The translations under genes were made by a program, and so were the position numbers. This document shows positions 12,749 to 54,600 of a stretch of DNA of 64,000 nucleotides, one piece after another. The stretch's first letter is position 1. Every line of letters starts with the position of its first letter. This stretch comes from Lytechinus pictus (Eukaryota): NCBI RefSeq assembly GCF_037042905.1, contig NC_087251.1:38814001-38878000 (forward strand), written 5' to 3'. A model generated the notes under the pieces. That model had not been told where the DNA came from. It did not search any database and saw nothing but the letters and a program-made list of their open reading frames with translations.

Positions 12749-15240
12749 AGGACCTGGCGCTGTTTAACTTCAATCTCTTTCACCTAAATTAGCGATGAAT
12801 GCTAGCATTATAAAATATATATTATTAACGTCTGACGAAAAGAATAACCAACCGATCAGCTGACGAGAACGCGAATCACGTGATCTTCATATCAGCTTCG
12901 ATCGCGAGTCAGAAGTGAAGAGCAACTGCCCAGAAAATCAGGAAAACCGTGAAAATGTAAGTTCCCCTTCATTTCTTTCATTTTTTTGTTGTTGCTAACG
13001 ATGCATTTACACTATAAAATTATAATTTAAATAAGAGAAAGGAATATAGCTTGTACTTGTGATATAATATATAAATATCCTGTTCTCAGAGATTTCTAAC
13101 CAAAAATACTACTGATGTCGCCTATGAGGTCCATACATGTAATGTTTGGACCTCATTGGTACTAGGAGTGGTCTTCTCACCAATTTTCGAATAAAAAATG
13201 CCATTCTTCTATAATAACTTCATAAATCATGCCATTTATTTAAATACTTGATTAAAATATTGCTTGGATGTAGTATTCTTGATAATATATAGACTCTCAT
13301 CATAATTTTACTTTTCTATTCATCTTAGAAAGCTAGTCTACTCTATCAGACCACATGAGACGAGTGAAAAGACATTTCATGACTATATTCATGACCAACG
13401 CATCTCTTACGATAAAAGATGCAGCAAATCTTTCTGAAATAGACTAAAATAGACAATAAACATTCTAAATAATATTTAGAATGTCTTGAAATCATTGATT
13501 TCTAATATTATCATATTAAAATGGGGTATTTTTTATATCAATTGGTAATAATGAATATGTGATCGATCAATCTAATCGTGGATGAGCACTGAACCAACTT
13601 ACCTTTTCCTGTATTATTTTTTTCAATTCATTCAACGGTTTGTTTGCAGAATCAGGGTCATAAAATGTGTTCTGAAATGTTGCTTTATTATTATATATCT
13701 AAATAAATAATGACGATGATACTATTATTGCCCTGGCTTTAGCACGCTATAATCTGATCGCATTCAAGGAATCTCTTCCTAGGTTATTTTTCATCTTTTC
13801 TAATTCTCCTAAATTACTAAGATTTTATATAAGGTATTTTTATACAAATAGCCTGAGAATTTTTCTTCTTTATGCCAATATGTTTTTTTTCTGGTAAAGC
13901 CTATTCATGTCTATACAAGTTTTGATAGTTTGTAATCCATCATAGGTAAATTTTATTATTTTTCATTTTACTTTTTATTCATAACCAAGTGTGGTAGTGT
14001 ATGCAGCCCTTTGATTCCTCTTTTATTGTCTTCCCTTGTTCAGATTTGGTGTAGCCTATGGGGAGGATATTGAAGGTCTTTGCCAGCTACTTTCCAGCAA
14101 AACAAAATGAAGAGTTATTTTTGCAGGTGAGCAGATACTACAATGAAATATTGGATGACTGTAATTTTAATTATTCCACTGGATGAATGCTTAACGTATT
14201 CAGGAATACGACATCATTACTTGGTTTTGTTTTCTTGTTGATGATTTAATTTAGAAATATGTAAAGTTATGTGAAATTCGAATTTCAAAACTACCACTTG
14301 GAGAGTGTTCAGATTTCATATCTCGATTGCTATATGCGCTAGTTTAAAGGCAAATTGACACTTACGATTGGTGCAATAAGGGGGGGGGGGGGCTCTTGTT
14401 AACAGTAATGGTTTTATAGACACCAAATGTCAAATGCCCGCACTAGTGTGCTTGCCCTTTGAATTCTTACAATGAAAAGTGAAATCTTCATGCTGCAATT
14501 TTAGTCCCATATACACATAATTGTTGTAAAGACAAAACAGAAATATAATCTAATGACTTCAATATTGCATTTCACCTTGTGAAAAGTTTGATCTGATTTT
14601 AACAATTCCAATTATTTGTAGTAATCAATATTTGTTCGTTTTTTTTTTCTTCTTTTCTTACATGTAGCACCCCCAGAGAGCCTTCAGCTAGTTCCAGTAA
14701 AGTGTGTATGAATCTGTTATCATGTCACTATCGGGTTTTTCTAGTGAGAGCATGGTCATCATCACAGAGTAATATTTAGTCCTGAAGTTTCATATTGCAT
14801 GTAAGTACAGATTACCACTAATAACCGGGGATGGGGTAGAGTGCCCTCTCAACAGAATTTGTCACTACCCACCCCCCAAAAAAAGAGATTGGGGTGGAGG
14901 TGCTTGTCAGAAAATAATGGACGGGAAAGTGCCTCTAAAAATATAAAACGGGGGGGGGGGGGGGAATTTGGAGTGGGGAATGGGTATTGTATAAAATAAA
15001 CTCAGGTACAAATTTAACTTGCCTTGCATTAAAAGGTATTCAAGAGTGCCACTCGTCAACATGCATATATTTATAAAAAGTTATAGAAATCTGTGATATA
15101 TAGTGGTGATGAAAAATAATAGCATTCTGTGATTAATGTCAATAACAATATAACAATATAACAAGTCTAGGTAGAAATGGTAATATTAACAATGATAAAT
15201 AAAGGTAACAATAACATATTAAATTATGAATTATTGCATT

Positions 15241-15257
15241 ATCTTTCTCTTTTTCAG
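15241..15257 (+). promoter_or_regulatory. Probable 3' splice acceptor just upstream of the transposase ATG
   Basis: Polypyrimidine tract ATCTTTCTCTTTTTCAG ends 5 nt before ATG 15263, implying spliced 5' exons upstream. Confidence 0.65.
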
Positions 15258-15262
15258 ATCAA

Positions 15263-18200
15263 ATGCTAAAATCAGAGAAAGCATCATCTACAATGGCAAG
15301 TCCAACAAACTGGCAACTTTGTGCTCTTTGTCAGGAACATTCGGATAATGATCTATTAAGAGATGCTCGTAGAGCCAGCAATCAGTCAAGTCGAGAAGTC
15401 TATGAGAAACTTGCTCAGAACCTCAGAACACTGCATGATCTAGGTGCCTTGCCTTGTGGGATAAACATTTCCCGACTGGATGAAGGTTGTGGTATTGCAG
15501 AGACGCTAGCTTTGCATGCTGCCAAATGGCACAAAAAATGTTACAGGCAATGTTGCGGTTATAGAGTGGGCCGAGCTGAATCAGTTGCAATGAAGCAGAG
15601 TGCAGACAACAAACTTGATGATGCAGCTTTCTCACCTGTAAGGAAAAGACTAAGAACAAGCTTGGCATCTTCATCTGAAGAACAGAAAAACACTAAGACA
15701 TGTTTCTTTTGCGATGATGTTATTACTAATGATCAAGTAGTTCACAGGGCAGCAACAATAAATTTAGATTCAAAAGTTAGAATGATGGCGACAGAGCTGA
15801 GAGAAACCAAACTTCTTACTAAATTATCAGTAGGTGATATGACAGCATCAGGTGCCGTATATCACAAGAAATGTCTGACTGCCCTATACACCAGATACAG
15901 ATCATTTGAAAGAAAGAAGGAAGTACTTACCAGTTCAAATGAAAATATGCAACCGGAATCGGTAGCATTGGCAGAATTGATATCCCATTTGGAAGAAATG
16001 AAGTTGACAGATGGCAGTTGTAATGCATTCAAGCTTGCAGATCTTGTAAAACTTTATACAGAGCGTTTGAAGCAACTAGGAGGTGATATTTCGAAGAAGA
16101 TTAATTCAACTCACATTAAAGACAAGCTTCTCAGACAACTTCCATATCTTGAGGCACATACAACCAATTATGAGGTAGTTTTGTCGTTTAAAGAGGACAC
16201 TGGTGACACTTTATTGAACACCTGTAGACAAGGCTCTGATGATGATGATGCTGTAATCTTAATGAGAGCAGCTAAGATTGTGCGCAGAGATATTTTGGAA
16301 AGGCATCATCTCTTCAATGGATCTCTTCTTGACGAATCGTGTAACACCACAGCTCAATCATTAACCACCTTGATGCAAATGATCCTTGTGGGTACCAACA
16401 TTAAAAAACAGATGACAAAGAAAAAGAGCATCCATGTGCAATCCATAAGTCAGCTTGTCACATTCAACACTGTTAAACGAGGTAGACCTGAAACCGCACG
16501 AGCCCGTCATAGTTTGGAGCGTGAAACCTCTTTGCCTGTCTACCTTGGTCTCCTCATTCATAATAAGACAAGGAAAAGGGATCTTGTGGACATCCTTTTT
16601 CAGCATGGTTTGTCAGTGTCATATGACCGCGTCCTCCAAATATCCGTAGATGAAGCTAACAAGGCTATCGAAGTCTATGAAAATGACCGAGTGGTGTGTC
16701 CAACTAAACTGCGAAGTGGGTTGTTCACAACAGGGAACCTGGACAACATTGATCACGATCCATCAGCAGGATCCTCGCGAACTTCCTTTCATGGGACAGC
16801 AATTTCGCTTACACAACATGTCTCACAAGACAATAAAGGTACCGTTAGGAATCATGAGAATGTCGCTGAGAATGGAAAGAGTAAGCATAGGAAAACCATT
16901 GATGCCCTACCAACATCTTACAGTGATGTCCCTCCTGCGGCATTTCCATCTAATCAGCCCATTCCAAGAAAACCTAAGCATCAATCAACTCCAACTGTTT
17001 CTACAAGAATAGAGGACAAGGACAGTCAGTGGCTTTCCTTTGTACACAAACTGCGGGAGAATGGAGGTCTCGAGGGTGAAAAGGACATATCCTGGTCAGC
17101 CTACATGGCAAATTTACAGGTTGGAGTTCCTCGACCACCTGCTATTACAGGACTGTTACCTATGTTCCGTGAGAGTGCCCATACATTAGAGATGGTGAAA
17201 CATGGGATGAACTCGATCAAGCAGGCAGCAGAACTACTGAATCCCGGGCAAGTTCCTGTTCTCACTGTTGACCAACCCCTCTATGCTATTGCTAAGAAGA
17301 TTCAGTGGACATGGCCAAATGTATACGGCGAAGACAAGTTTGTGGTGATGATGGGAGGACTTCACATAGAGATGGCCTTGTTGAAAGTGATCGGTGACTT
17401 CTTGGAAGGGAGCGGTTGGACGAGTGTGATCACTAATGCAGGTGTAACAACAGAAGGAAGAGCCGAGAGTCTTCAAAAAGGATCACAGACTTCAAGGGCT
17501 CAATGGGCACACCAGGTTACTGCTGCAGCACTTCATTCTCTTCAGCAATCAGCATACCAAGACTATGTAAAAACATGTGCAAGTGAAAACATCCAATCGT
17601 TTGATGCTTGGAAGCTCAAGATGGCAACAGATTATCCCCAGTTTTGTTACTGGAATAAGGTTTTGCAGTTGGAATGCCTTCTCCTAGCATTCCTAAGATC
17701 ACAAAGGGAAGCTAACTACATGATGTACGTGGAGGCCCTTAAGGCGATCATTCCATGGCTGTTTGCAATGGATCATTACCATTACAGTGCATATCATGGA
17801 TCTCCAGGATCTTCCAATCAATCCCATGGATACCCATAATTCCTTCACCGATGGGAACTTTGTTACTCAAAAGTCATCACACAGATTCTCTGCATTAGCA
17901 CATGACCAAGTACATGAACAGCAGAATGCTGTAGTCAAAGGTGATGGTGGGGTAATAGGAATCACTGAGAATGAAGCTGCTCTTTGTCGATGGATGGTGG
18001 CTGGTCCAGAAATAGCAAGAATTATGAGTGAATATGAGGACCAGTTCCAGAGCGAGAAGGAACCTGATGTTCGCCATCATGAGCAACTACCAAGCATGCA
18101 GAAATCCTTTGCAACAGATCTCAACAATACAATAAGTTCATTTGAGAAACTGGGGAATCCATTTGATGAAGACACTAAAGATCTGTACGTGCTTGACACC

Positions 18201-19850
18201 AAGGTCGTCATGCCCCATGAAGCAGTCGCAACACTCAGATCAATAGAGGAAACTGGCAAGGCACAACATAACAAATTTCTGGAGAGAATGAAAGATCCTT
18301 CTGGAAAATTCTATGACAAAATTTCAAAGAACAATCTGGCAATATTCAAATCCAAGGCCAAGAAAGTACATGCCAAGTCTTTGGTGAAGATGACTAATAT
18401 GAAAAGCAATGTTGAGCTATTTTCTCGAATGTACATTTCTTGTCAAGCTAGAGATGGTGATATCGACACATTCTTTGAACATGAATGTCACAGTTGGCCC
18501 CCAGCATTGGCAGAGAATATTGATACAATGCGCCCTCCAACCAGCAAAGCTGATCTTGTGCCTTGTTTGGAAGCTCTTGTACCCCGTACCAAGGACATAC
18601 CCAAAGCAGAAGTTTGCATTTTCGATGGGGCAGCCCTAGTGCATCAGTTGGAACCCAAAAAATGCAATGATGTAATCAAGACATTTGGAGATTATGCAGA
18701 GAAGCAGTTCCTTCCATACATTGCCCGAAAATTAAATGAGGAGACGGTGGTACGTGTCGATGTTGTGTGGGATACATATAGAACCGACAGCCTAAAAGGA
18801 GGCACCAGGCTTGGTCGGGGTACTGGCATGCCACTTCATGTAACTGAACAAACACCAGTACCTCTAAACTGGAGCAGCTTCCTTCGTGTAGATTCTAACA
18901 AGAAGACATTGTTCAATTTCCTTGCTGCTTCTCTACAAACAATGAGTGTTCCAGATGGAAAAACTCTACTTACAACCCAGGAAGAAGAGGTTAAATCAAA
19001 ACCCTCCTTAAATGTTTGGCAGAACATTCAACCATGTACACATGAAGAAGCAGATTCACGCATGGTGCTTCATGCTTGGCAGGCATATCAGCAAGGATTC
19101 AGAAGTATTATCATTCATGCTACAGACACAGATGTGGTTGTGTTGGCTATCGCAATGGCCAGTAAAATGGATGGCGTCGCATTGTGGTTGGCCTTTGGAC
19201 ATGGAAGAATTCTGAGGTACATAGCAGCTCATACTATTTCGAGAAAGCTGGGCCTCGAACGTTCATGGGGACTACTGTTCCTGCATGCTGTTACTGGATG
19301 TGATACCGTTTCTGCTTTATCTGGGATAGGCAAGAAGACTGTGTGGGATGTATGGAATTCCATGCCAAACTTAGGAGAGGTCTTCAATCGTCTCTCGAAT
19401 GCACCATTTGAAGTAACAAATGATGACATGGACACAATTGAAAGGTTCTTTGTTGTCCTGTACAGTAGAACTTCCTCTCTGAAGAAAGTAAATGAAGCAC
19501 GTAAGCAGCTATTTGCTCAGGGGAATCGACAGCTGGAAAACATTCCACCAACTAAAGAAGCACTGCGTCAACATGTGAAGAGGGCAGTCTATCAAGCAGG
19601 TCACATATGGGGACAATCTCAAAAAGCAAACCCAGAGCTGCCTTCGCCTGCAGATTGGGGATGGACAAAGGATGATGAGGGATGGCATCCATTCTAGACA
19701 GTACTGCCAGAGGCGTCAAAAAGCTGCAGAGAGCTGATCAGATGCAAGTGTAGAAAGCGGTGCACTGGAAATTGCAAATGTTCTGCAGCTAATCTACCAT
19801 GCACAGGACTATGTTTTTGTTCAGGACAATGCTTTCGACATGAAGAATAG
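15263..19850 (+). pseudogene. Academ transposase with XPG/FEN1-like nuclease and C-terminal CXC (Cys-rich) domain; two inactivating lesions
   Basis: ORFs 15263-17839 and 17763-19697 join by a frameshift at ~17785. Read-through of TAG 19695-19697 gives TVLPEASKSCRELIRCKCRKRCTGNCKCSAANLPCTGLCFCSGQCFRHEE* (stop ends 19850). Motifs: N-terminal CxxC/H..C Zn motifs, NLDNIDH, FHGT, DQPLY, MGGLHIEM, DQVHEQ; FEN/XPG acidic motifs FDG, VVWD, HEEAD, DTDV; H3TH-like GCDTVSALSGIGKKT. Confidence 0.88.
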
Positions 19851-20084
19851 GAGAGTCAAGTTGGATTGAGAATTTATGGACCATGTATCATTGCTTACAC
19901 ATTTGAATGACACTAAAGCAGGTATGAGACTTTTTTTTTTCAGACCGAATAGTCAGATTGCTTGAACGGCATTTGTTTTCAACCAACATTCCAAAATAAC
20001 TTTGCGTCCAGAAATACCCAGAATGAAAAATGTGACAACTCATTTAGAAGAGATAAAAATTTATTTCTGCCATTTATGAATTTA

Positions 20085-20976
20085 AGATGTCCGCCATCTT
20101 GGAGCTGAAGATGGCGTTTGACCCAGTGGTCAGATGGCAATGAGCAACGAAAATACCTTGATTGTGTGCCAAATTACTGTGCCATAGATCATGCAAATTA
20201 GATTGTGGAGAGAATGATACAAAGCAATTTTTCATGACGGCCATCTTGAATTTCAAGATGGTTGCCGACCCAGTGGTCTGATCACTTGGGGCCAGCATTT
20301 TTCTTAAGCAGTGCTTCAAAATACTCCCGTATGCCAAATTACAGAGTGACAGCTCAAGTAGAACGAAACAAGACAAGGTGGGGGAGGGGGATATGTCGGC
20401 CATCTTGGAATTCAAGATGGCCGCCATCTTAGAAATGAAGATGGCGGCTGATCTGATTGTCAGATTGCATAGGGCCGATGATTTTTGAAATTGGCATCCC
20501 AAAATACCCCTGTTTGCCACATTTCAGTGTCAGATGTGATGTATAACTCAAGAAAATTAGAAAAATGATTTTTGATGGCGGCCATCTTGGATTTCAAAAT
20601 GGTGGCCGACCCGGTGATCAGATCGCTTGGGGCCGGCAATTTTTGAAATCAGCGTCCCAAATTACGCATATATGCCAAATTTTAATATAGGAATTCAAAA
20701 GAAACTTGAGAAAGTGTTTTCAATAATATTTCATGGCGGCCATTTTGCCGCCGACCAAATAATCAAATTGCTTGGGGCTGACAATATTTGAAATCAGTAC
20801 CTCAAAATACCCCTGTATACCAAATTTCAGTGTCACATGCCATGTAAAACTCAAGAAAGTGATATTTATTGATTTTTCATGGCGGCCATCTTGGATTTCA
20901 AAATGGCGGCCGAACCGATGGTCAGATCGCTTGGGGCCGGCAATTTTTGAAATCAGCGCGCAAAAATACCCCTGTA
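20085..20976 (-). repeat. Right subterminal repeat array of the Academ element (~6 units, ~150-170-bp period), inverted relative to the left array
   Basis: ATGGCGGCCATCTTGGATTTCAARATGGCGGCCGA...CAGATCGCTTGGGGCC...AAATACCCC units near 20090, 20235, 20400, 20575, 20735 and 20880. Confidence 0.85.
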
Positions 20977-23910
20977 TCATTACTACTTTAGTCTAGGCCT
21001 ACCCCGGTTTGGACCTTGGTCCTGGCCAGGGAATGGGGTGGCGCAGCCCTGCCCCTGGACTGGGTCTGGCTGGGGCTCCTTCCATTCATGCTTTATAGAT
21101 CAAAATCGAGACCTAATGCGGGACCTAATCTAGTTTAGCAATACAAGAGATCTAGGATAGATATCTAGCTCAGGCAATACGAGCAATCGCTTGTAATTAG
21201 TCTATTCTAGGGCCCAAGATTGAAACTGTCTTTACATCATTAGTAAGCTAACATTATAGATCTACTAGAACCACAAATGATACTCTAGATCTCTTCTATG
21301 TCTTATCTTAAACCTGACTTTTTAACTCTGACATTAAAATTCAAATAGAATCCAGTACATGTACATGTGTAGGTTCTAACTTAGACCTTTGGGAGATGGG
21401 GCCTCCGCTGCCTTCGCTTCGGTGGTGGAGCCCCCTGGGTTTATGAGAGAGCTATGGAATAGGGTAGTGTAGCTCTAATATATTATAATACTGTTTTCTA
21501 TTGCCAGGGGTAGAGGCCTAGATCTAGTCAAGATTTATCAGTTGGTAGATGTGCACTACAATAACATGTAAAGTATAAGACCCTAGAAGTGAGTGGGGGG
21601 TCCCTCTTTGTTAAAAAAAAAACCTGAAGTGGTTGGTGTGTAATAAAGGTGATAATATAATTCAGAAAATCCTGGGTCACCCTCTGTGCTAACGAAGACT
21701 GGAGACTACTGAACAGGAAGGGAAAGAAGGGGAATAAAAGAAGAAAAAAAACACACTGAATTAATTAAGTCAAACACTGTCTGATTAGACTGATGACTAT
21801 ATTGTATGTTAATATCTAATATAGATATTAACGTACCTCTTTGATGGATATTTTAGACTCTTCCAATTTTTAACAAAAACAATAAGTTGAACAGGCAGTC
21901 AACAAAAAATAGATTTATGTATCCTCTTTTGTGTTTTCTGATTTGAATGTATTCTCTGAGAGCTGGCCGCTGCCCTGTAGACAAGCTAACTGTTTGATAA
22001 GTTTAATACACTTCTGAGGATGTAGCACACATTTTAGTACTTTGATTTGTTTTACAGGTTAAATACCTTATCAAATGCCTTTTCTATGGAGAAAAAGCAT
22101 TTCCATTACCGGTAACTACAGGATTTGGTTTCTGATCTGTGGATAAAAATAACCATGATAATTGAAATTCTCTTGGTGACTGTTATGAAGAATTTTTCAT
22201 ACTGTATTCTATTTCTTTTACCTATTTACTGTAAAGAGGATTTTTAGATTAATTATTAAAGGGGTGTTGTTTTTAGAAAAAAAAATAGGCAATTTGAAGT
22301 AAAGAAATTCCCTATGTTTTGTATATAGAATTATAGGGCCTACAATTTTCTTTCCTATAAAACCTACATGTAAAACATCCCAGGGAGCGAAGACGGCTGA
22401 TTTGGGGGGGTTTCTGGGGCAATATTAAACAAAAATTATTTTGCTCAATTTTGCCCAATTTTGCCCAATTTTCCATGTCGCAGGTGGGGCGAGGGGGTCA
22501 AAAATTCAAACTCCCTGGATCATCTTGATTCTCGCTGTAATAATCGGTTAGGATGCTAAAACATCCCAGGGAGCAAAGACGGCTGATTTGGGGGGGTTTC
22601 GGGGGCAATATTAAACAAAAATTATTTTGCTCAATTTTGCCCAATTTTCCATGTCGCGGGTGGGGCGAGGGGGTCGAAAATTCAAACTCCCTGGATCATC
22701 TTGATTCTCGCTGTAATAATCGGTTAGGATGCTAAAACATCCCAGGGAGCAAAGACGGCTGATTTGGGGGGGTTTCGGGGGCAATATTAAACAAAAATTA
22801 TTTTGCTCAATTTTGCCCAATTTTGCCCAATTTTCCATGTCGCGGGTGGGGCGAGGGGGTCGAAAATTCAAACTCCCTGGATCATCTTGATTCTCGCTGT
22901 AATAATCGGTTAGGATGCTAAAACATCCCAGGGAGCAAAGACGGCTGATTTGGGGGGGTTTCGGGGGAAATATTGAACAAATATTATTTTGCTCAATTTT
23001 GGCCAATTTTCCATGTCGCGGGTGGGGCGAGGGGGTCGAAAATTAAAACTCCCTGGATCCTCTTGATTCTCGCTGTAATAATCGGTTAGGATGCTAAAAC
23101 ATCCCAGGGAGCGAAGACGGCTGATTTGGGGGGGTTTCGGGGGAAATATTGAACAAATATTATTTTGCTCAATTTTGGCCAATTTTGCCCAATTTTCCAT
23201 GTCGCGGGTGGGGCGAGGGGGTCGAAAATTCAAACTCCCTGGATCCTCTTGATTCTCGCTGTAATAATCGGTTAGGATGCTAAAACATCCCAAGGAGCGA
23301 AGACGGCTGATTTTGGGGGGTTTCGGGGGAAATATTGAACAAATATTATTTTGCTCAATTTTGGCCAATTTTGCCCAATTTTCCATGTCGCGGGTGGGGC
23401 GAGGGGGTCGAAAATTAAAACTCCCTGGATCCTCTTGATTCTCGCTGTAATAATCGGTTAGGATGCTAAAACATCCCAGGGAGCGAAGACGGCTGATTTG
23501 GGGGGGTTTCGGGGGAAATATTGAACAAATATTATTTTGCTCAATTTTGGCCAATTTTGCCCAATTTTCTATGTCGCGGGTGGGGCGAGGGGGTCAAAAA
23601 TTCAAACTCCCTGGATCCTCTTGATTCTCGCTGTAATAATCGGTTAGGATGCTAAAACATTCCAGGGAGTAATGACGGCTGATTTGGGGGGGTTCTGGGG
23701 GAAATATTGAACAAATATTATTTTAATCATTTTTGGCCAATTTTGCCCAATTTTCCATGTCGCGGGTGGGGCGAGGGGGTCGAAAATTAAAACTCCCTGG
23801 ATCCTCTTGATTCTCGCTGTAACAATCGGTTAAGATGCTAAAACATCCCAGGGAGCGAAGATGGCTGATTTGGGGGGGTTTCGGGGGAAAAATTGAACAA
23901 ATATTATTTA

Positions 23911-24360
23911 CACCCCAAAGACCCTATCCCTGATCACAGACGTGATGGCGTAGTATACAACATTCCTTGCCAGGGATGTGACGGGTCTTACATCGGAGAA
24001 ACAGCCCGACCGATAGTTGAACGCATTTCTGAACACAAGCGCGATGTTCGGTTACAGCGAACCAACACATCCGCGGTGGCAGAACATGCTTGGGAGAAGC
24101 AACACCATCCAGATTGGGAGGGTGTACAATGCATTGCCAAAGAGGGACATTGGTATACACGCAGGATTAAGGAGGCTATTAGTATACGTCTTTGTCCTAA
24201 CAACTTCAACAGAGACAGCGGGATCGACATCCCCGACTTCTGGATGCGAACCATCCGACAGCACAATACCCCCTTACCTGGCAGTGCACGCCGACCCGAT
24301 CGTTCCCGGCCCCGAACAAGGGACCGCTCAGCTAGTCAGCCCCCGCCCACGGGAAACTAG
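23911..24360 (+). pseudogene. C-terminal GIY-YIG endonuclease domain of the Penelope-like ORF (N-terminus and RT missing)
   Basis: HPKDP...GVVYNIPCQGCDGSYIGETAR...RISEH...SAVAEHAW...HHPDW...RRIKEAISI...NFNRDSG matches the Penelope/Poseidon GIY-YIG signature. The first 6 codons of the tracked ORF come from the satellite and junction. Confidence 0.9.
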
Positions 24361-24368
24361 CAAGCCCG

Positions 24369-24533
24369 CCAATTTTGTCTAATTTGCATATTGCCGACCC
24401 ACGGCGTATTTGCATATACCCCCGGCTTATTTGCATACACGGATTACCGGCCGTACCGCATCCGACGCAACGGATCAATGCCCACCTATTGTTCTCGCGT
24501 TCGTGCGTACGGTCCCGGAGATTAGTATAAATA
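24369..24533 (+). promoter_or_regulatory. Putative pLTR promoter: CCAAT, three octamer motifs and TATA box
   Basis: CCAAT at 24369; ATTTGCAT at 24382, 24408 and 24429; TATAAATA at 24526, ~30 nt upstream of the hammerhead. Confidence 0.6.
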
Positions 24534-24557
24534 GAATACGTCATCAGATAATTTTCG

Positions 24558-24598
24558 TCACTTGATAAAGAGTTGCAGCGGCACTCGAAAGCTCGTGA
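24558..24598 (+). ncRNA. Minimal type I hammerhead ribozyme (U3-A8 variant)
   Basis: TCAC (stem I) - TTGATAA (core) - A - GAGT tgcagcggc ACTC (stem II) - GAAA - GCTC (AGCT palindromic mini stem III, cleavage predicted after C24594) - GTGA (stem I). Confidence 0.75.
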
Positions 24599-24604
24599 AC
24601 TTGT

Positions 24605-24691
24605 AAGCTAGTGAACACTTTTTGCGAGAGTGATCACGATTTTCCTAGAAAGCCAGTGAACACTTTTTGCGAGAGTGATCACGAATTTCCT
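24605..24691 (+). repeat. 45-bp tandem duplication in the Penelope pLTR
   Basis: AAGCTAGTGAACACTTTTTGCGAGAGTGATCACGATTTTCCTAGA followed by AAGCCAGTGAACACTTTTTGCGAGAGTGATCACGAATTTCCT. Confidence 0.9.
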
Positions 24692-27600
24692 TGTTGACCA
24701 TAGTAGATTGCGAGACAAATGAATACCCTCTAGCGATTATTTCAATCCGCAATAATGAACCTATTTAGTAAATATTATTTTGCTCAATTTTGCCCAATTT
24801 TCCATGTCGCGGTGGGGCGAGGGGGTCGAAAATTCAAACTCCCTGGATCCTCTTGATTCTCGCTGTAATAATCGGTTAGGATGCTAAAACATCCCAGGGA
24901 GCTAAGACGGCTGATTTGGGGGGGTTTCGGGGGAAATATTGAACAAATATTATTTTGGTCAATTTTTGCCAATTTTGCCCAATTTTCCATGTCGCGGGTG
25001 GGGCAATGGGGTCGAAAATTCAAACTCTCTGGATCCTCTTGATTCTCGCTGTAATAATCGGTTAGGATGCTAAAACATCCTAAGGAGCGAAGACGGCTGA
25101 TTTGGGGGGGTTTCAGGGGAAATATTGAACAAATATTATTTTGCTCAATTTTTGCCAATTTTGCCCAATTTTCCATGTCGCGGGTGGGGCGAGGGGGTCG
25201 AAAATTCAAACTAGCTGGATCCTCTTGATTCTCGCTGTAATAATCGGTTAGGATGCTAAAACATTCCAGGGAGTGAAGACGGCTGATTTGGGGGGGTTCT
25301 GGGGGAAATATTGAAAAAATATTATTTTGCTCAATTTTGGCCAATTTTGCCCAATTTTCCATGTCGCGGGTGGGGCGAGGGGGTCGAAAATTAAAACTCC
25401 CTGGATCCTCTTGATTCTCGCTGTAATAATCGGTTAGGATGCTAAAACATCCCAGGGAGCAAAGGCGGCTGATTTGGGGGGGTTTCGGGGGAAATATTGA
25501 ACAAATATTATTTTGCTCAATTTTTGCCAATTTTGCCCAATTTTCCATGTCGCGGGTGGGGCGAGGGGGTCGAAAATTCAAACTAGCTGGATCCTCTTGA
25601 TTCTCGCTGTAATAATCGGTTAGGATGCTAAAACATTCCAGGGAGTGAAGACGGCTGATTTGGGGGGGTTCTGGGGGAAATATTGAACAAATATTATTTT
25701 GCTCAATTTTGGCCAATTTTGCCGAATTTTCCATGTCGCGGGTGGGGCGAGGGGGTCGAAAATTCAAACTCCCTGGATCCTCTTGATTCTCGCTGTAATA
25801 ATCGGTTAGGATGCTAAAACATCCCAGGGAGCAAAGACGGCTGATTTGGGGGGGTTTTGGGGGAAATATTGAACAAATATTATTTTGCTCAATTTTGGAC
25901 AATTTTGCCCAATTTTCCATGTCGCGGTGGGGCGAGGGGGTCGAAAATTCAAACTCCCTGGATCCTCTTGATTCTCGCTGTAATAATCGGTTAGGATGCT
26001 AAAACATCCAGGGGAGCAAAGACGGCTGATTTGGGGGGGTTTCGGGGGAAATATTGAACAAATATTATTTTGGTCAATTTTTCCAATTTTGCCCAATTTT
26101 CCATGTCGCGGTTGGGGCGAGGGGGTCGAAAATTCAAACTCCCTGGATCCTCTTGATTCTCGCTGTAATAATCGGTTAGGATGCTAAAACATTCCAGGGA
26201 GCGAAGACGGCTGATTTGGGGGGGTTCTGGGGGAAATATTGAACAAATATTATTTTGCTCAATTTTGGCCAATTTTGCCGAATTTTCCATGTCGCGGGTG
26301 GGGCAATGGGGTCGAAAATTCAAACTCCCTGGATCCTCTTGATTCTCGCTGTAATAATCAGTTAGGATGCTAAAACATTCCAGGGAGCGAAGACAGCTGA
26401 TTTGGGGGGGTTCTGGGGGAAATATTGAACAAATATTATTTTGCTGAATTTTGGCCAATTTTGCCGAATTTTCCATGTCGCGGGTGGGGCAATGGGGTCG
26501 AAAATTCAAACTCTCTGGATCCTCTTGATTCTCGCTGTAATAATCGGTTAGGATGCTAAAACATCCTAAGGAGCAAGACGGCTGATTTGGGGGGGTTTCA
26601 GGGGAAATATTGAACAAATATTATTTTGCTCAATTTTGGCCAATTTTCCATGTCGCGGGTGGGGCGAGGGGGTCGAAAATTAAAACTCCCAGGATCCTCT
26701 TGATTCTCGCTGTAATAATCGGTTAGGATTCTAAAACATCCCAGGGAGCAAAGACGGCTGATTTGGGGGGGTTTCGGGGGAAATATTGAACAAATATTAT
26801 TTTGCTCAATTTTGGCCAATTTTGCCCAATTTTCCATGTCGCGGGTGGGGCGAGGGGGTCGAAAATTCAAACTAGCTGGATCCTCTTGATTCTCGCTGTA
26901 ATAATCGGTTAGGATGCTAAAACATTCCAGGGAGTGAAGACGGCTGATTTGGGGGGGTTTTGGGGGAAATATTGAACAAATATTATTTTGCTAAATTTTG
27001 GCCAATTTTGCCCAATTTTCCATGTCGCGGGTGGGGCGAGGGGGTCGAAAATTCAAACTCCCTGGATCCTCTTGATTCTCGCTGTAATAATCGGTTAGGA
27101 TGCTAAAACATCCCAGGGAGCAAAGACGGCTGATTTGGGGGGGTTTTGGGGGAAATATTGAACAAATATTATTTTGCTCAATTTTTGCCAATTTTGCCCA
27201 ATTTTCCATGTCGCGGGTGGGGCAATGGGGTCGAAAATTCAAACTCCCTGGATCCTCTTGATTCTCGCTGTAATAATCGGTTAGGATGCTAAAACATCCT
27301 AAGGAGCGAAGACGGCTGATTTGGGGGGGTTTCAGGGGAAATATTGAACAAATATTATTTTGCTCAATTTTGGCCAATTTTGCCCAATTTTCCATATCGC
27401 GGGTGGGGCGAGGGGGTCGAAAATTAAAACTCCCTGGATCCTCTTGATTCTCGCTGTAATAATCGATTAGGATGCTAAAACATCCCAGGGAGCGAAGACG
27501 GCTGATTTGGGGGGGTTTCGAGGGAAATATTGAACAAATATTATTTTGCTCAATTTTGGCCAATTTTGCCCAATTTTCCATGTCGCGGGTGGGGCGAGGG

Positions 27601-51600: not shown

Positions 51601-54600
51601 ATAATCGGTTAGGATGCTAAAACATCCCAGGGAGCAAAGACGGCTGATTTGGGGGGGGTTTCGGGGGAAATATTGAACAAATAATATTTTGCTCAATTTT
51701 GGCCAATTTTGCCCAATTTTCCATGTCGCGGTGGGGCGAGGGGGGTCGAAAATTCAAACTCCCTGGATCCTCTTGATTCTCGCTGTAATAATCGGTTAGG
51801 ATGCTAGAACATTCCAGGGAGTGAAGACGGCTGATTTGGGGGGGTTTCGGGGGAAATATTGAACAAATATTATTTTGCTCAATTTTGGCCAATTTTGCCC
51901 AATTTTCCATGTCGCGGGTGGGGCGAGGGGGTCAAAAATTCAAACTCCCTGGATCCTCTTGATTCTCGCTGTAATAATCGGTTAGGATGCTAAAACATTC
52001 CAGGGAGTAATGACGGCTGATTTGGGGGGGTTCTGGGGGAAATATTGAACAAATATTATTTTGCTCATTTTTGGCAAATTTTGCCCAATTTTCCATGTCG
52101 CGGGTGGGGCGAGGGGGTCGAAAATTCAAACTCCCTGGATCCTCTTGATTCTCGCTGTAATAATCGGTTAGGATGCTAAAACATCCCAGGGAGCGAAGAC
52201 GGCTGATTTGGGGGGGTTTCGGGGGAAATATTGAACATGTTATTTTGCTCAATTTTGGCCAATTTTGCCCAATTTTCCATGTCGCGGGTGGGGCGAGGGG
52301 GTCGAAAATTCAAACTCCCTGGATCCTCTTGATTCTTGCTGTAATAATCGGTTAGGATGCTAAAATATCCCAGGGAGCAAAGACGGCTGATTTGGGGGGG
52401 TTTCGGGGGAAATATTGAACAAATATTATTTTGCTCAATTTTGGCCAATTTTGTCAAATTTTCCATGTCGCGGGTGGGGCGAGGGGGTCGAAAATTCAAA
52501 CTCCCTGGATCCTCTTGATTCTCGCTGTAATAATCGGTTAGGATGCTAAAACATCCCAGGGAGCAAAGACGGCTGATTTGGGGGGGTTTCGGGGGAAATA
52601 TTGAACAAATATTATTTTGCTAAATTTTGCCCAATTTTCCATGTCGCGGTTGGGGCGAGGGGGTCGAAAATTCAAAGTCCCTGGATCTTCTTGATTCTCG
52701 CTGTAATAATCGGTTAGGATGCTAAAACATTCCAGGGAGCGAAGACAGCTGATTTGGGGGGGTTTCGGGGGAAATATTGAACAAATATTATTTTGCTCAA
52801 TTTTGGCCAATTTTGCCCAATTTTCCATGTCGCGGGTGGGGCAATGGGGTCGAAAATTCAAACTCCCTGGATCATCTTGATTCTCGCTGTAATAATCGGT
52901 TAGGATGCTAAAACATCCTAAGGAGCGAAGACGGCTGATTTGGGGGGGTTTCAGGGGAAATATTGAACAAATATTATTTTGCTCAATTTTGGCCAATTTT
53001 GCCCAATTTTCCATGTCGCGGGTGGGCGAGGGGGTCGAAAATTAAAACTCCCTGGATCCTCTTGATTCTCGCTGTAATAATCGATTAGGATGCTAAAACA
53101 TCCCAGGGAGCGAAGACGGCTGATTTGGGGGGGTTTCGGGGGAAATATTGAATAAATATTATTTTGCTCAATTTTGGCCAATTTTGCCAAATTTTCCATG
53201 TCGCGGGTGGGGCGAGGGGGTCGAAAATTCAAACTCCCTGGATCCTCTTGATTCTTGCTGTAATAATCGGTTAGGATGCTAAAACATCCCAGGGAGCGAA
53301 GACGGCTGATTTAGGGGGGTTTCGGGGGAAATATTGAACAAATATTATTTTGCTCAATTTTGGCCAATTTTGCCCAATTTTCCATGTCGCGGGTGGGGCG
53401 AGGGGGTCGAAAATTCAAACTCCCTGGATCCTCTTGATTCTCGCTGTAATAATCGGTTAGGATGCTAAAACATCCCAGGGAGCAAAGACGGCTGATTTGG
53501 GGGGGTTTCGGGGGAAATATTGAACAAATATTATTTTGCTCAATTTTGGCCAATTTTGTCAAATTTTCCATGTCGCGGGTGGGGCGAGGGGGTCGAAAAT
53601 TCAAACTCCCTGGATCCTCTTGATTCTCGCTGTATTAATCGGTTAGGATGCTAAAACATCCCAGGGAGCAAAGACGGCTGATTTGGGGGGGTTTCGGGGG
53701 AAATATTGAACAAATATTATTTTGCTCAATTTTTGCCAATTTTGTCCAATTTTCCATGTCGCGGTTGGGGCGAGGGGGTCGAAAATTCAAAGTCCCTGGA
53801 TCTTCTTGATTCTCGCTGTAATAATCGGTTAGGATGCTAAAACATTCCAGGGAGCGAAGACAGCTGATTTGGGGGGGTTTCGGGGGAAATATTGAACAAA
53901 TATTATTTTGCTCAATTTTGGCCAATTTTGCCGAATTTTCCATGTCGCGGGTGGGGCAATGGGGTCGAAAATTCAAACTCCCTGGATCCTCTTGATTCTC
54001 GCTGTAATAATCGGTTAGGATGCTAAAACATCCTTAGGAGCAAAGACGGCTGATTTGGGGGGGTTTCAGGGGAAATTTTGAACAAATATTATTTTGCTCA
54101 ATTTTGGCAAATTTTCCCAATTTTCCATGTCGCGGGTGGGGCGAGGGGGTCCAAAATTAAAACTCCCTGGATCCTCTTGATTCTCGCTGTAATAATCGGT
54201 TAGGATGCTAAAACATCCCAGGGAGTGAAGACGGCTGATTTGGGGGGGTTTCGGGGAAAATATTGAACAAATATTATTTTGCTCAATTTTGCCCAATTTT
54301 CCATGTCGCGGTGGGGCGAGGGGGTCGAAAATTCAAACTCCCTGGATCCTCTTGATTCTCGCTGTAATAATCGGTTAGGATGCTAAAACATCCCAGGGAG
54401 CAAAGACGGCTGATTTGGGGGGGTTTCGGGGGAAATATTGAACAAATATTATTTTGGTCAATTTTTGCCAATTTTGCCCAATTTTCCATGTCGCGGTTGG
54501 GGAGAGGGGGTCGAAAATTCAAACTCCCTGGATCCTCTTGATTCTCGCTGTAATAATCGGTTAGGATGCTAAAACATCCCAGGGAGTGAAGACGGCTGAT

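Follow-up and report, generated by a model that had tools for sequence, protein, structure and literature searches.

Inverted truncated partners are a described trait of Penelope-like elements (PLEs) (PMC8557442), and a tail of 30-40 bp between two reverse-transcription start sites has been reported (PMC11167929). Minimal hammerhead ribozymes of these elements are described as not cleaving when present as single motifs (PMC4209133); in the anole, the hammerhead cleaves only with the element's protein, insertion proceeds from uncut RNA, and RNA-seq has no ends at the cut site (PMC11167929). Here we describe a window of 64,000 nucleotides of Lytechinus pictus (contig NC_087251.1, positions 38,814,001 to 38,878,000), in which a Penelope-like copy lies inside a large array of a 186-bp satellite. 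An earlier reading of the sequence (the original prediction) had proposed that the pseudo-long terminal repeat (pLTR) of this copy, whose octamers may bind POU factors, could drive strand-specific and possibly developmentally timed satellite transcripts, their 5' end being trimmed by the ribozyme. Our analysis indicated that the locus is very probably an ordinary young Penelope insertion. Its promoter and ribozyme would serve the tandem cycle of the element itself, and any read-through would at most be incidental. Coordinates are window positions unless a contig is named, and the genome searches covered the window's own assembly (812 Mb).

The insert is a 5'-truncated copy that retains the end of the open reading frame (ORF), the pLTR and the tail (Table 1), with one base of microhomology at each end beside the 10-bp target duplication. 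In its endonuclease part, a pair of cysteines lies between the GIY-like and the YIG-like motif, and the best Atlas match of the C-terminus was a GIY-YIG domain protein, at a score of 0.95 and with PF01541 in 28% of the members, while neither a Pfam search of the truncated ORF nor a PDB sequence search with the full ORF returned a significant match. The full ORF was found at locus L031, where an intact 2867-bp tandem unit encodes 823 amino acids (RVT_1, E 7e-8) and a 1014-bp identical repeat recurs at a spacing of 2867 bp. A single ORF with reverse transcriptase and C-terminal GIY-YIG domains at L031, partial tandems forming pLTRs, a tail in the 30-40 bp range and inverted truncated partners (adjoining 11 of 30 copies) are the features of canonical endonuclease-positive (EN+) PLEs, and the element is classed here as canonical EN+ and Penelope/Poseidon-type, the clade name being taken from domain layout and not from a reverse-transcriptase tree.

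A genome search with the insert gave 783 candidates, with 97-100% identity in the 40 that were scored; this total, like the other candidate counts below, is a rough lower bound. The closest genomic copy differs from the window copy at 3 of 861 bases, and the hammerhead sequence occurs in 469 genomic copies (at most one mismatch). Candidates numbered 245 for the octamer stretch of the pLTR and 874 for the tail, which is the gradient expected from 5' truncation. The family is thus described as young, abundant and actively spreading. At locus L011, a 6-bp insert lies at a TA within the pLTR, at the position matching 24608, which we take to resemble a Tc1/mariner excision footprint.

Table 1. Features of the Penelope-like insertion and of the satellite around it, in window positions
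Feature	Position	Strand	Remark
Left arm of the satellite-bearing dispersed repeat	20975-22370	+	true end further left in other copies
186-bp satellite upstream of the insert	22371-23909	+	about 8 monomers
Target-site duplication, left copy	23900-23909	+	exact 10-bp repeat of 24771-24780
Penelope-like retroelement copy, 5'-truncated (ORF end, pLTR, tail)	23910-24770	+	861 bp
ORF C-terminus, last 149 codons, GIY-YIG endonuclease	23911-24360	+	stop 24358-24360
Promoter motifs	24342-24436	+	GC box 24342, CCAAT 24369, octamers 24382, 24408, 24429
TATA box TATAAATA	24526-24533	+
Minimal type-I hammerhead	24558-24598	+	predicted cut between 24594 and 24595
GTAAG donor-like site	24603-24607	+
45-bp tandem duplication	24605-24691	+	fixed: in all 30 aligned copies
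3' region	24710-24770	+	GACAAAYGA motif 24714, short 3' end ~24739, ORF ATG 24755, long 3' end 24770
Target-site duplication, right copy	24771-24780	+	10 bp, AT-rich satellite sequence
186-bp satellite downstream of the insert	24771-64000, on to G000:C7:38,955,054	+	116,284 bp past the insert

The CCAAT box, three octamers, TATA box, hammerhead and GTAAG site of the original prediction were all found where it had placed them, and its identification of a Penelope pLTR with promoter and hammerhead, facing the long side of the array, is supported. The octamer ATTTGCAT occurs three times, the second and third copies within one 21-bp tandem duplication; Markov simulations of the insert reached three octamers in 0 of 5000 trials and two in 3 of 5000, for a motif picked post hoc. 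CCAAT alone is weakly informative, with 340 occurrences in the downstream satellite. The octamer triplet is retained in 29 of 30 family loci, and 27 of the 30 have the full set of six cassette motifs intact; therefore the cassette is the family's ordinary pLTR. No octamer triplet was found in 32 distant relatives scanned for 900 nt past the endonuclease match, nor any octamer within 250 nt upstream in 12 relatives; the triplet is a family-specific gain of putative function. A literature search on octamers with Penelope or retrotransposons, covering titles and abstract openings, showed no octamers in pLTRs among the hits listed, which is not proof of absence, and the term "octamer" is absent from PMC2377424.

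The placing of the TATA box is conserved beyond the family. Of 12 distant relatives, 9 have a TATA-like 7-mer (0-2 mismatches) 35-36 nt ahead of the core of the hammerhead, and the spacing in the window is equal; CCAAT occurs at -58/-59 in 8 of 12 relatives, and the window family has none at that place. The interval 24340-24600 contains 25 CpG dinucleotides (observed/expected 1.53). Judged by the TATA-to-core spacing, transcription would start at about 24556-24560, at the 5' strand of helix I, and the region looks like a real and credible promoter for polymerase II, with predicted activity.

The hammerhead comprises a 4-bp helix I, a U3-A8 core pair, an unpaired A preceding helix II, a 6-bp bulged helix II and a palindromic 4-nt helix III, and it folds in isolation with helix-pair probabilities of 0.49-1.0. 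Its identification stands on folding and covariation, because an Rfam scan of the window (no matches at gathering scores) and folding z-scores against shuffles (not significant) alone give no support. A metagenome scan for relatives yielded 73 loci with 35-73% identity in the best-matching protein segment, and 32 of these were scanned for hammerheads, most near-duplicate copies of one family being excluded; a minimal hammerhead follows the endonuclease in 17 of the 32. In an unfitted alignment of the window copy and 11 relatives, 95.4% of cells were paired and 8 of 13 pairs changed on both sides, including the core pair (U3-A8/C3-G8) and the helix III palindrome, a level matched in 0 of 500 shuffles and compared with 14-50% in slid controls; these changes count few independent events, since most relatives are close kin of one another. 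The core, helices I and II, the unpaired base 9/10.1 and the palindromic helix III of minimal type-I PLE hammerheads are all present, and the motif is a genuine minimal hammerhead of U3-A8 type, a class described as inactive in single copy and assisted by protein (PMC4209133, PMC11167929).

Several observations bear on what this ribozyme could do to a satellite transcript. Helix I forms with a probability of 0.44 in RNA starting at 24556 and of 0 in RNA starting at 24560; in a two-copy fold the active dimer is not the minimum, and the 174 kb examined contain no second hammerhead copy. All 30 aligned copies extend beyond the cut site, and therefore their RNA templates were uncut there. The trimming of a satellite transcript is unlikely, because lone motifs are described as inactive or protein-dependent, the copies come from uncut RNA and a second copy is not present nearby.

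The insert does not pass directly from the donor-like site into satellite, as had been supposed: 163 bp of the element's own 5' untranslated region (UTR) and tail intervene (24608-24770), and this stretch holds both an upstream ATG at 24719 and the beginning of the ORF, 16 nt long. Acceptor-like AGs occur inside the element at 24648, 24703, 24706 and 24733, preceded by 7-10 pyrimidines in 14 positions as compared with 6-8 in 14 in the first two monomers. A spliceosomal intron in the 5' UTR is common, though not universal, among canonical EN+ PLEs. The 5'-UTR intron predicted from 24603 was not confirmed in aligned RNA reads: none of 883 reads aligned from run X22, a diverged sample, has a splice joint from this site, and GTRAG is at the donor position in 0 of 12 relatives, so that the proposed splicing into the satellite finds no counterpart in these data. 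A joint in X22 that skips 114 bases (6 reads) was rejected as an intron, having no splice ends. Downstream, copies of the family end at query positions 826-837 or 859-861, that is, at two 3' ends 31 nt apart, which delimit a 31-bp "tail". The motif GACAAAYGA is kept just ahead of the 3' insertion ends in 8 of 12 distant relatives and is a candidate protein-binding or reverse-transcription start signal.

The copy lies within the array, 1.5 kb from its edge, and the satellite ahead of it runs on well beyond the 39 kb first given (Table 1). AATAAA is scarce downstream, as the original prediction stated, with 16 occurrences (first at 53151), but ATTAAA occurs 75 times, first at 25390, 795 nt past the cut site, its use as a signal being only putative. 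The left arm that adjoins the array (about 1.4 kb) has matches of 94-100% at 10 places on C3, C7 and C16, each stopping where the array begins, and matches of 78-81% at 28 further scored places (563 candidates) on many contigs. The C3 arrays start and stop at the same monomer register, with both flanks common to them and the window array, and both sister copies examined have an array-free site. The shared flanks and the empty sister sites indicate that the monomer was inserted into a single lineage of a dispersed repeat, within which it expanded and by which it was spread. Reading the array as a private event, with an 8-bp target duplication around the whole of it, was rejected, since other arrays have the same flanks.

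Satellite sequence totals 0.5-0.7 Mb (3752 matches correspond to about 0.7 Mb), with exact 40-mers on C3 and C7 and, among the matches listed, none on C1, C2, C4, C5 or C6; on C7, several arrays lie close together in a stretch of 10 Mb. Large arrays without presence on most or all chromosomes are not the pattern of a centromeric satellite, collapsed arrays being possible, and in this assembly the satellite is not pan-centromeric, although on C7 it may lie in a pericentric position. Neither strand of the 116-kb array contains a hammerhead core, and a non-LTR retrozyme was rejected on this ground, the tandem units having none.

Other properties of the array and its carrier were observed as follows. 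The smallest arrays measure about 12 kb and the largest 119 kb. The window array is bounded on both sides by one 8-bp palindrome, where sister copies have only TA. Monomers meet at a short, imperfect inverted repeat, and the monomer may thus have been a small element that targets TA and was amplified where it had landed. Internal duplications have periods such as 1837, 2406, 3168, 4623 and 8681 bp, and one unrelated 379-bp insert lies near the far end. On the minus strand of 24771-64000 the monomer equals 62 codons with one frame open, giving repeat ORFs of up to 726 amino acids, a mechanical result with no sign of a gene. To the left, at about 19900-20975, the carrier's left arm is truncated by a diverged repeat, about 150 bp in length, in which self-complementary motifs recur.

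Whether element and satellite are associated beyond chance was judged from junction patterns, scored places and array edges. Gap patterns detected one tail-satellite junction genome-wide in sense orientation, that of the window, and none in antisense; one of 40 scored places spans the junction, and satellite was found within 1.5 kb of 0 of 29 other element loci. Given 0.5-0.7 Mb of satellite, chance alone predicts 0.15-0.75 copies. The insert has private substitutions and was not carried along in extra copies by the array's many kilobase-scale duplications, and the monomer has no similarity to the element. The junction occurs at the chance rate, and a special link between element and satellite is not supported.

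Four of 24 sequencing runs were aligned: X22 as raw RNA, and X1, X2 and X3 as contigs, the RNA nature of X2 and X3 being a guess. Among the 24 runs, the best share of the sequence was 0.48 and none with the element was recorded as RNA, and this search was not counted as evidence on expression. Chimeric element-satellite reads or contigs were absent from all four, none of which is known to carry the window allele or to be of the same species. In X22, all 883 reads fell on the element and none on the satellite parts; there was no pile-up of read starts or ends, including at the cut site, first mates were equal on both strands, and the alleles differ from the window's. Loose ends leading to mixed sequence occurred in 133 reads at 24739-24742 and in 177 reads at 24770. 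X22 represents a diverged pLTR form at 24431-24470 and 24541-24556, with another segment ahead of the TATA box and many changes up to 24556, and 24557-24639 (the hammerhead and the sequence after it) is without change among the 40 of 111 rows listed. Low-depth satellite contigs in X2 and X3 were not counted as transcription, and an apparent "empty site" joint in X2 proved to be an ordinary monomer.

By analogy with the mechanism described in PMC11167929, the retroelement would have nicked a satellite monomer where it is AT-rich; reverse transcription of a tandem transcript would have begun 16 nt inside the next ORF, where the long-tail start site lies, and copying would have halted after 861 nt, leaving the 10-bp target duplication. 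Truncated copies retain the pLTR because copying starts at the 3' end, and since the promoter and hammerhead of a pLTR serve the next element of a tandem, any such copy resembles a cassette aimed at its flank. The flank in this case is a 186-bp array grown inside a dispersed-repeat copy. Most likely the copy is silent or leaks short, mostly uncleaved read-through RNA that would have no host role. Such an event is ordinary, truncated Penelope copies always ending in promoter, hammerhead and tail.

Certain findings weigh against this view. The promoter appears real, with conserved TATA spacing, a CpG-rich surrounding and a family that is transposing. In X22, 61% of the element reads, irrespective of direction, continue into unlike sequence, partly as the ORF of tandem copies; together with the loose ends into mixed sequence, this indicates that element-flank RNA is common in the family, which speaks for possible read-through. 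The four aligned runs are not known carriers of the window allele or known to be of the same species, so that silence of the locus does not follow and its expression is neither shown nor excluded. Moreover, the junction patterns require exact 11-mers, and diverged or tail-less insertions in satellite could escape them.

The alternative that survives best, although it is improbable, is that the promoter is active at some stage and yields capped, strand-specific pLTR-satellite RNA, uncut and ending at ATTAAA variants or by attrition, which would act, at this array and its sister arrays, by way of small-RNA silencing or on chromatin. The intact motifs, the orientation toward 116 kb of array and the few AATAAA signals are consistent with it, as are the pLTR promoter of D. 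virilis Penelope, reported as ovary-biased (PMC2377424), and embedded human transposable elements (TEs), which according to 10.1101/2021.07.12.451456 stay transcribed and may read into alpha satellite. Read depth climbs several-fold from 24536 in X22, X2 and X3; however, this climb also tracks DNA copy number between octamers and tail. The human study describes only limited transcription of adjacent satellite, the insertion is single, young and unamplified, and the four runs have no element-satellite bridge and X22 no depth on satellite, a match of allele or species not being established. Of the satellite transcripts originally predicted, what stands is that read-through is physically possible and has a human precedent; the chimeric RNA itself did not appear in these runs.

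A stronger form, which we consider highly improbable, holds that the family gained its triple POU-octamer module ahead of a TATA promoter and dispersed it to some 245 or more places, and that the copy in the window fires in the germline or early embryo into the 116 kb of transposon-borne satellite, giving strand-specific RNA that the element's own protein could trim at the hammerhead and that silences or marks at least 10 sister arrays in trans. If this were true, the locus would offer a natural switch, probably a polymorphic one, with which to test whether a single retroelement promoter can set chromatin across a satellite family. It is also very hard to sustain that the junctions arose as an assembly artefact between two repeats: both partners are high-copy repeats and no aligned contig spans either junction, yet the exact 10-bp target duplication in monomer register, the family-typical 3' end and the private substitutions all speak for a real insertion.

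The least credible alternative, in which a satellite transcript has its 5' end trimmed by the hammerhead and acts as (peri)centromeric RNA, can draw on a structurally sound ribozyme at the predicted start, on the clustering of arrays on C7 and on retroelement transcripts that feature at Drosophila centromeres (PMC10356649, PMC11575011), but it is scarcely tenable given single minimal hammerheads that do not cleave (PMC4209133), an anole hammerhead that requires element protein and leaves no RNA-seq ends at the cut (PMC11167929), the lack of a read-end pile-up in X22, the start-dependence of helix I, the restricted spread of satellite 40-mers among the matches listed and the carriage of the array as cargo of a dispersed repeat. 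Both the trimming and the (peri)centromeric role advanced in the original prediction thus lose their footing. Two small points are of some value: the 35-36 nt TATA-to-core spacing would set the start at helix I, which bears on what such ribozymes can cut, and the octamer triplet is a gain particular to this family.

Two further features lie elsewhere in the window. On the plus strand, 15230-19697 contains two overlapping stop-free frames of 869 and 657 amino acids without a significant Pfam match, the shorter of which matches Atlas clusters of unnamed eukaryotic proteins (0.94-0.97); they are probably a frameshifted DNA-transposon gene. On the minus strand, 576-2518 is a broken non-LTR retrotransposon, with RVT_1 (E 2e-16) and zf-RVT (E 3e-7) matches in pieces.

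The anole Poseidon element PAc of Anolis carolinensis (PMC11167929) shares with the window family pLTR-ORF tandems, an AT-rich target, 3' ends about 30 nt apart and insertion from uncut RNA, whereas its ORF begins inside the hammerhead, which in the window family lies about 160 nt ahead of the ATG, and its reverse transcription starts 111-118 nt into the ORF, compared with ends at about -16 and +16 of the ATG here. D. virilis Penelope (PMC2377424) likewise has its promoter in the pLTR and a donor-like site about 45 nt past the start (the predicted start in the window) in the 5' UTR; however, its promoter is internal and TATA-less, while the TATA, CCAAT and three octamers of the window copy lie upstream, and its intron splices, while no splicing was seen in the window family. 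The PLE hammerheads of PMC4209133 agree with that of the window in a short helix I, a long helix II preceded by an unpaired base, a G-C closing pair and a palindromic helix III, and are mostly single motifs of truncated copies; that report describes the U3-A8 variant, the helix II bulge and a palindromic insert of 2 nt, each by itself, but the window family, as known here from its sequence, unites the U3-A8 pair of Schistosoma with the bulge and 2-nt insert of D. virilis. The supplements of PMC4209133 list further hammerhead families, and this one may be among them.

The satellite context also has described counterparts. Non-LTR retrozymes (10.64898/2026.07.22.740005) resemble the locus in a hammerhead adjoining tandem repeats but carry a hammerhead in each unit, in contrast to the window monomer. 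Cg_HINE of oyster (PMC7492417), a non-autonomous element that carries satellite arrays as its central repeats, is dispersed and has variable-length arrays between shared flanks, a likeness of array layout, while Helentron/HINE-type carriers are marked by subterminal inverted repeats, a stem-loop and a TT target; the window family differs in arrays of up to 119 kb and in a monomer that seemingly entered its carrier as one insertion. G2/Jockey-3 at Drosophila centromeres (PMC10356649) is also a retroelement inside tandem repeats, with possible read-through, but it is common to all centromeres, whereas the window has one insertion, at the rate that chance predicts, in an array for which a centromeric role is unsupported. 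The TEs of human alpha satellite (10.1101/2021.07.12.451456) share both the position of a retroelement inside tandem repeats and possible read-through, and because TE read-through into satellite thus has a precedent, even a positive case at this locus would be a variant of a known theme.

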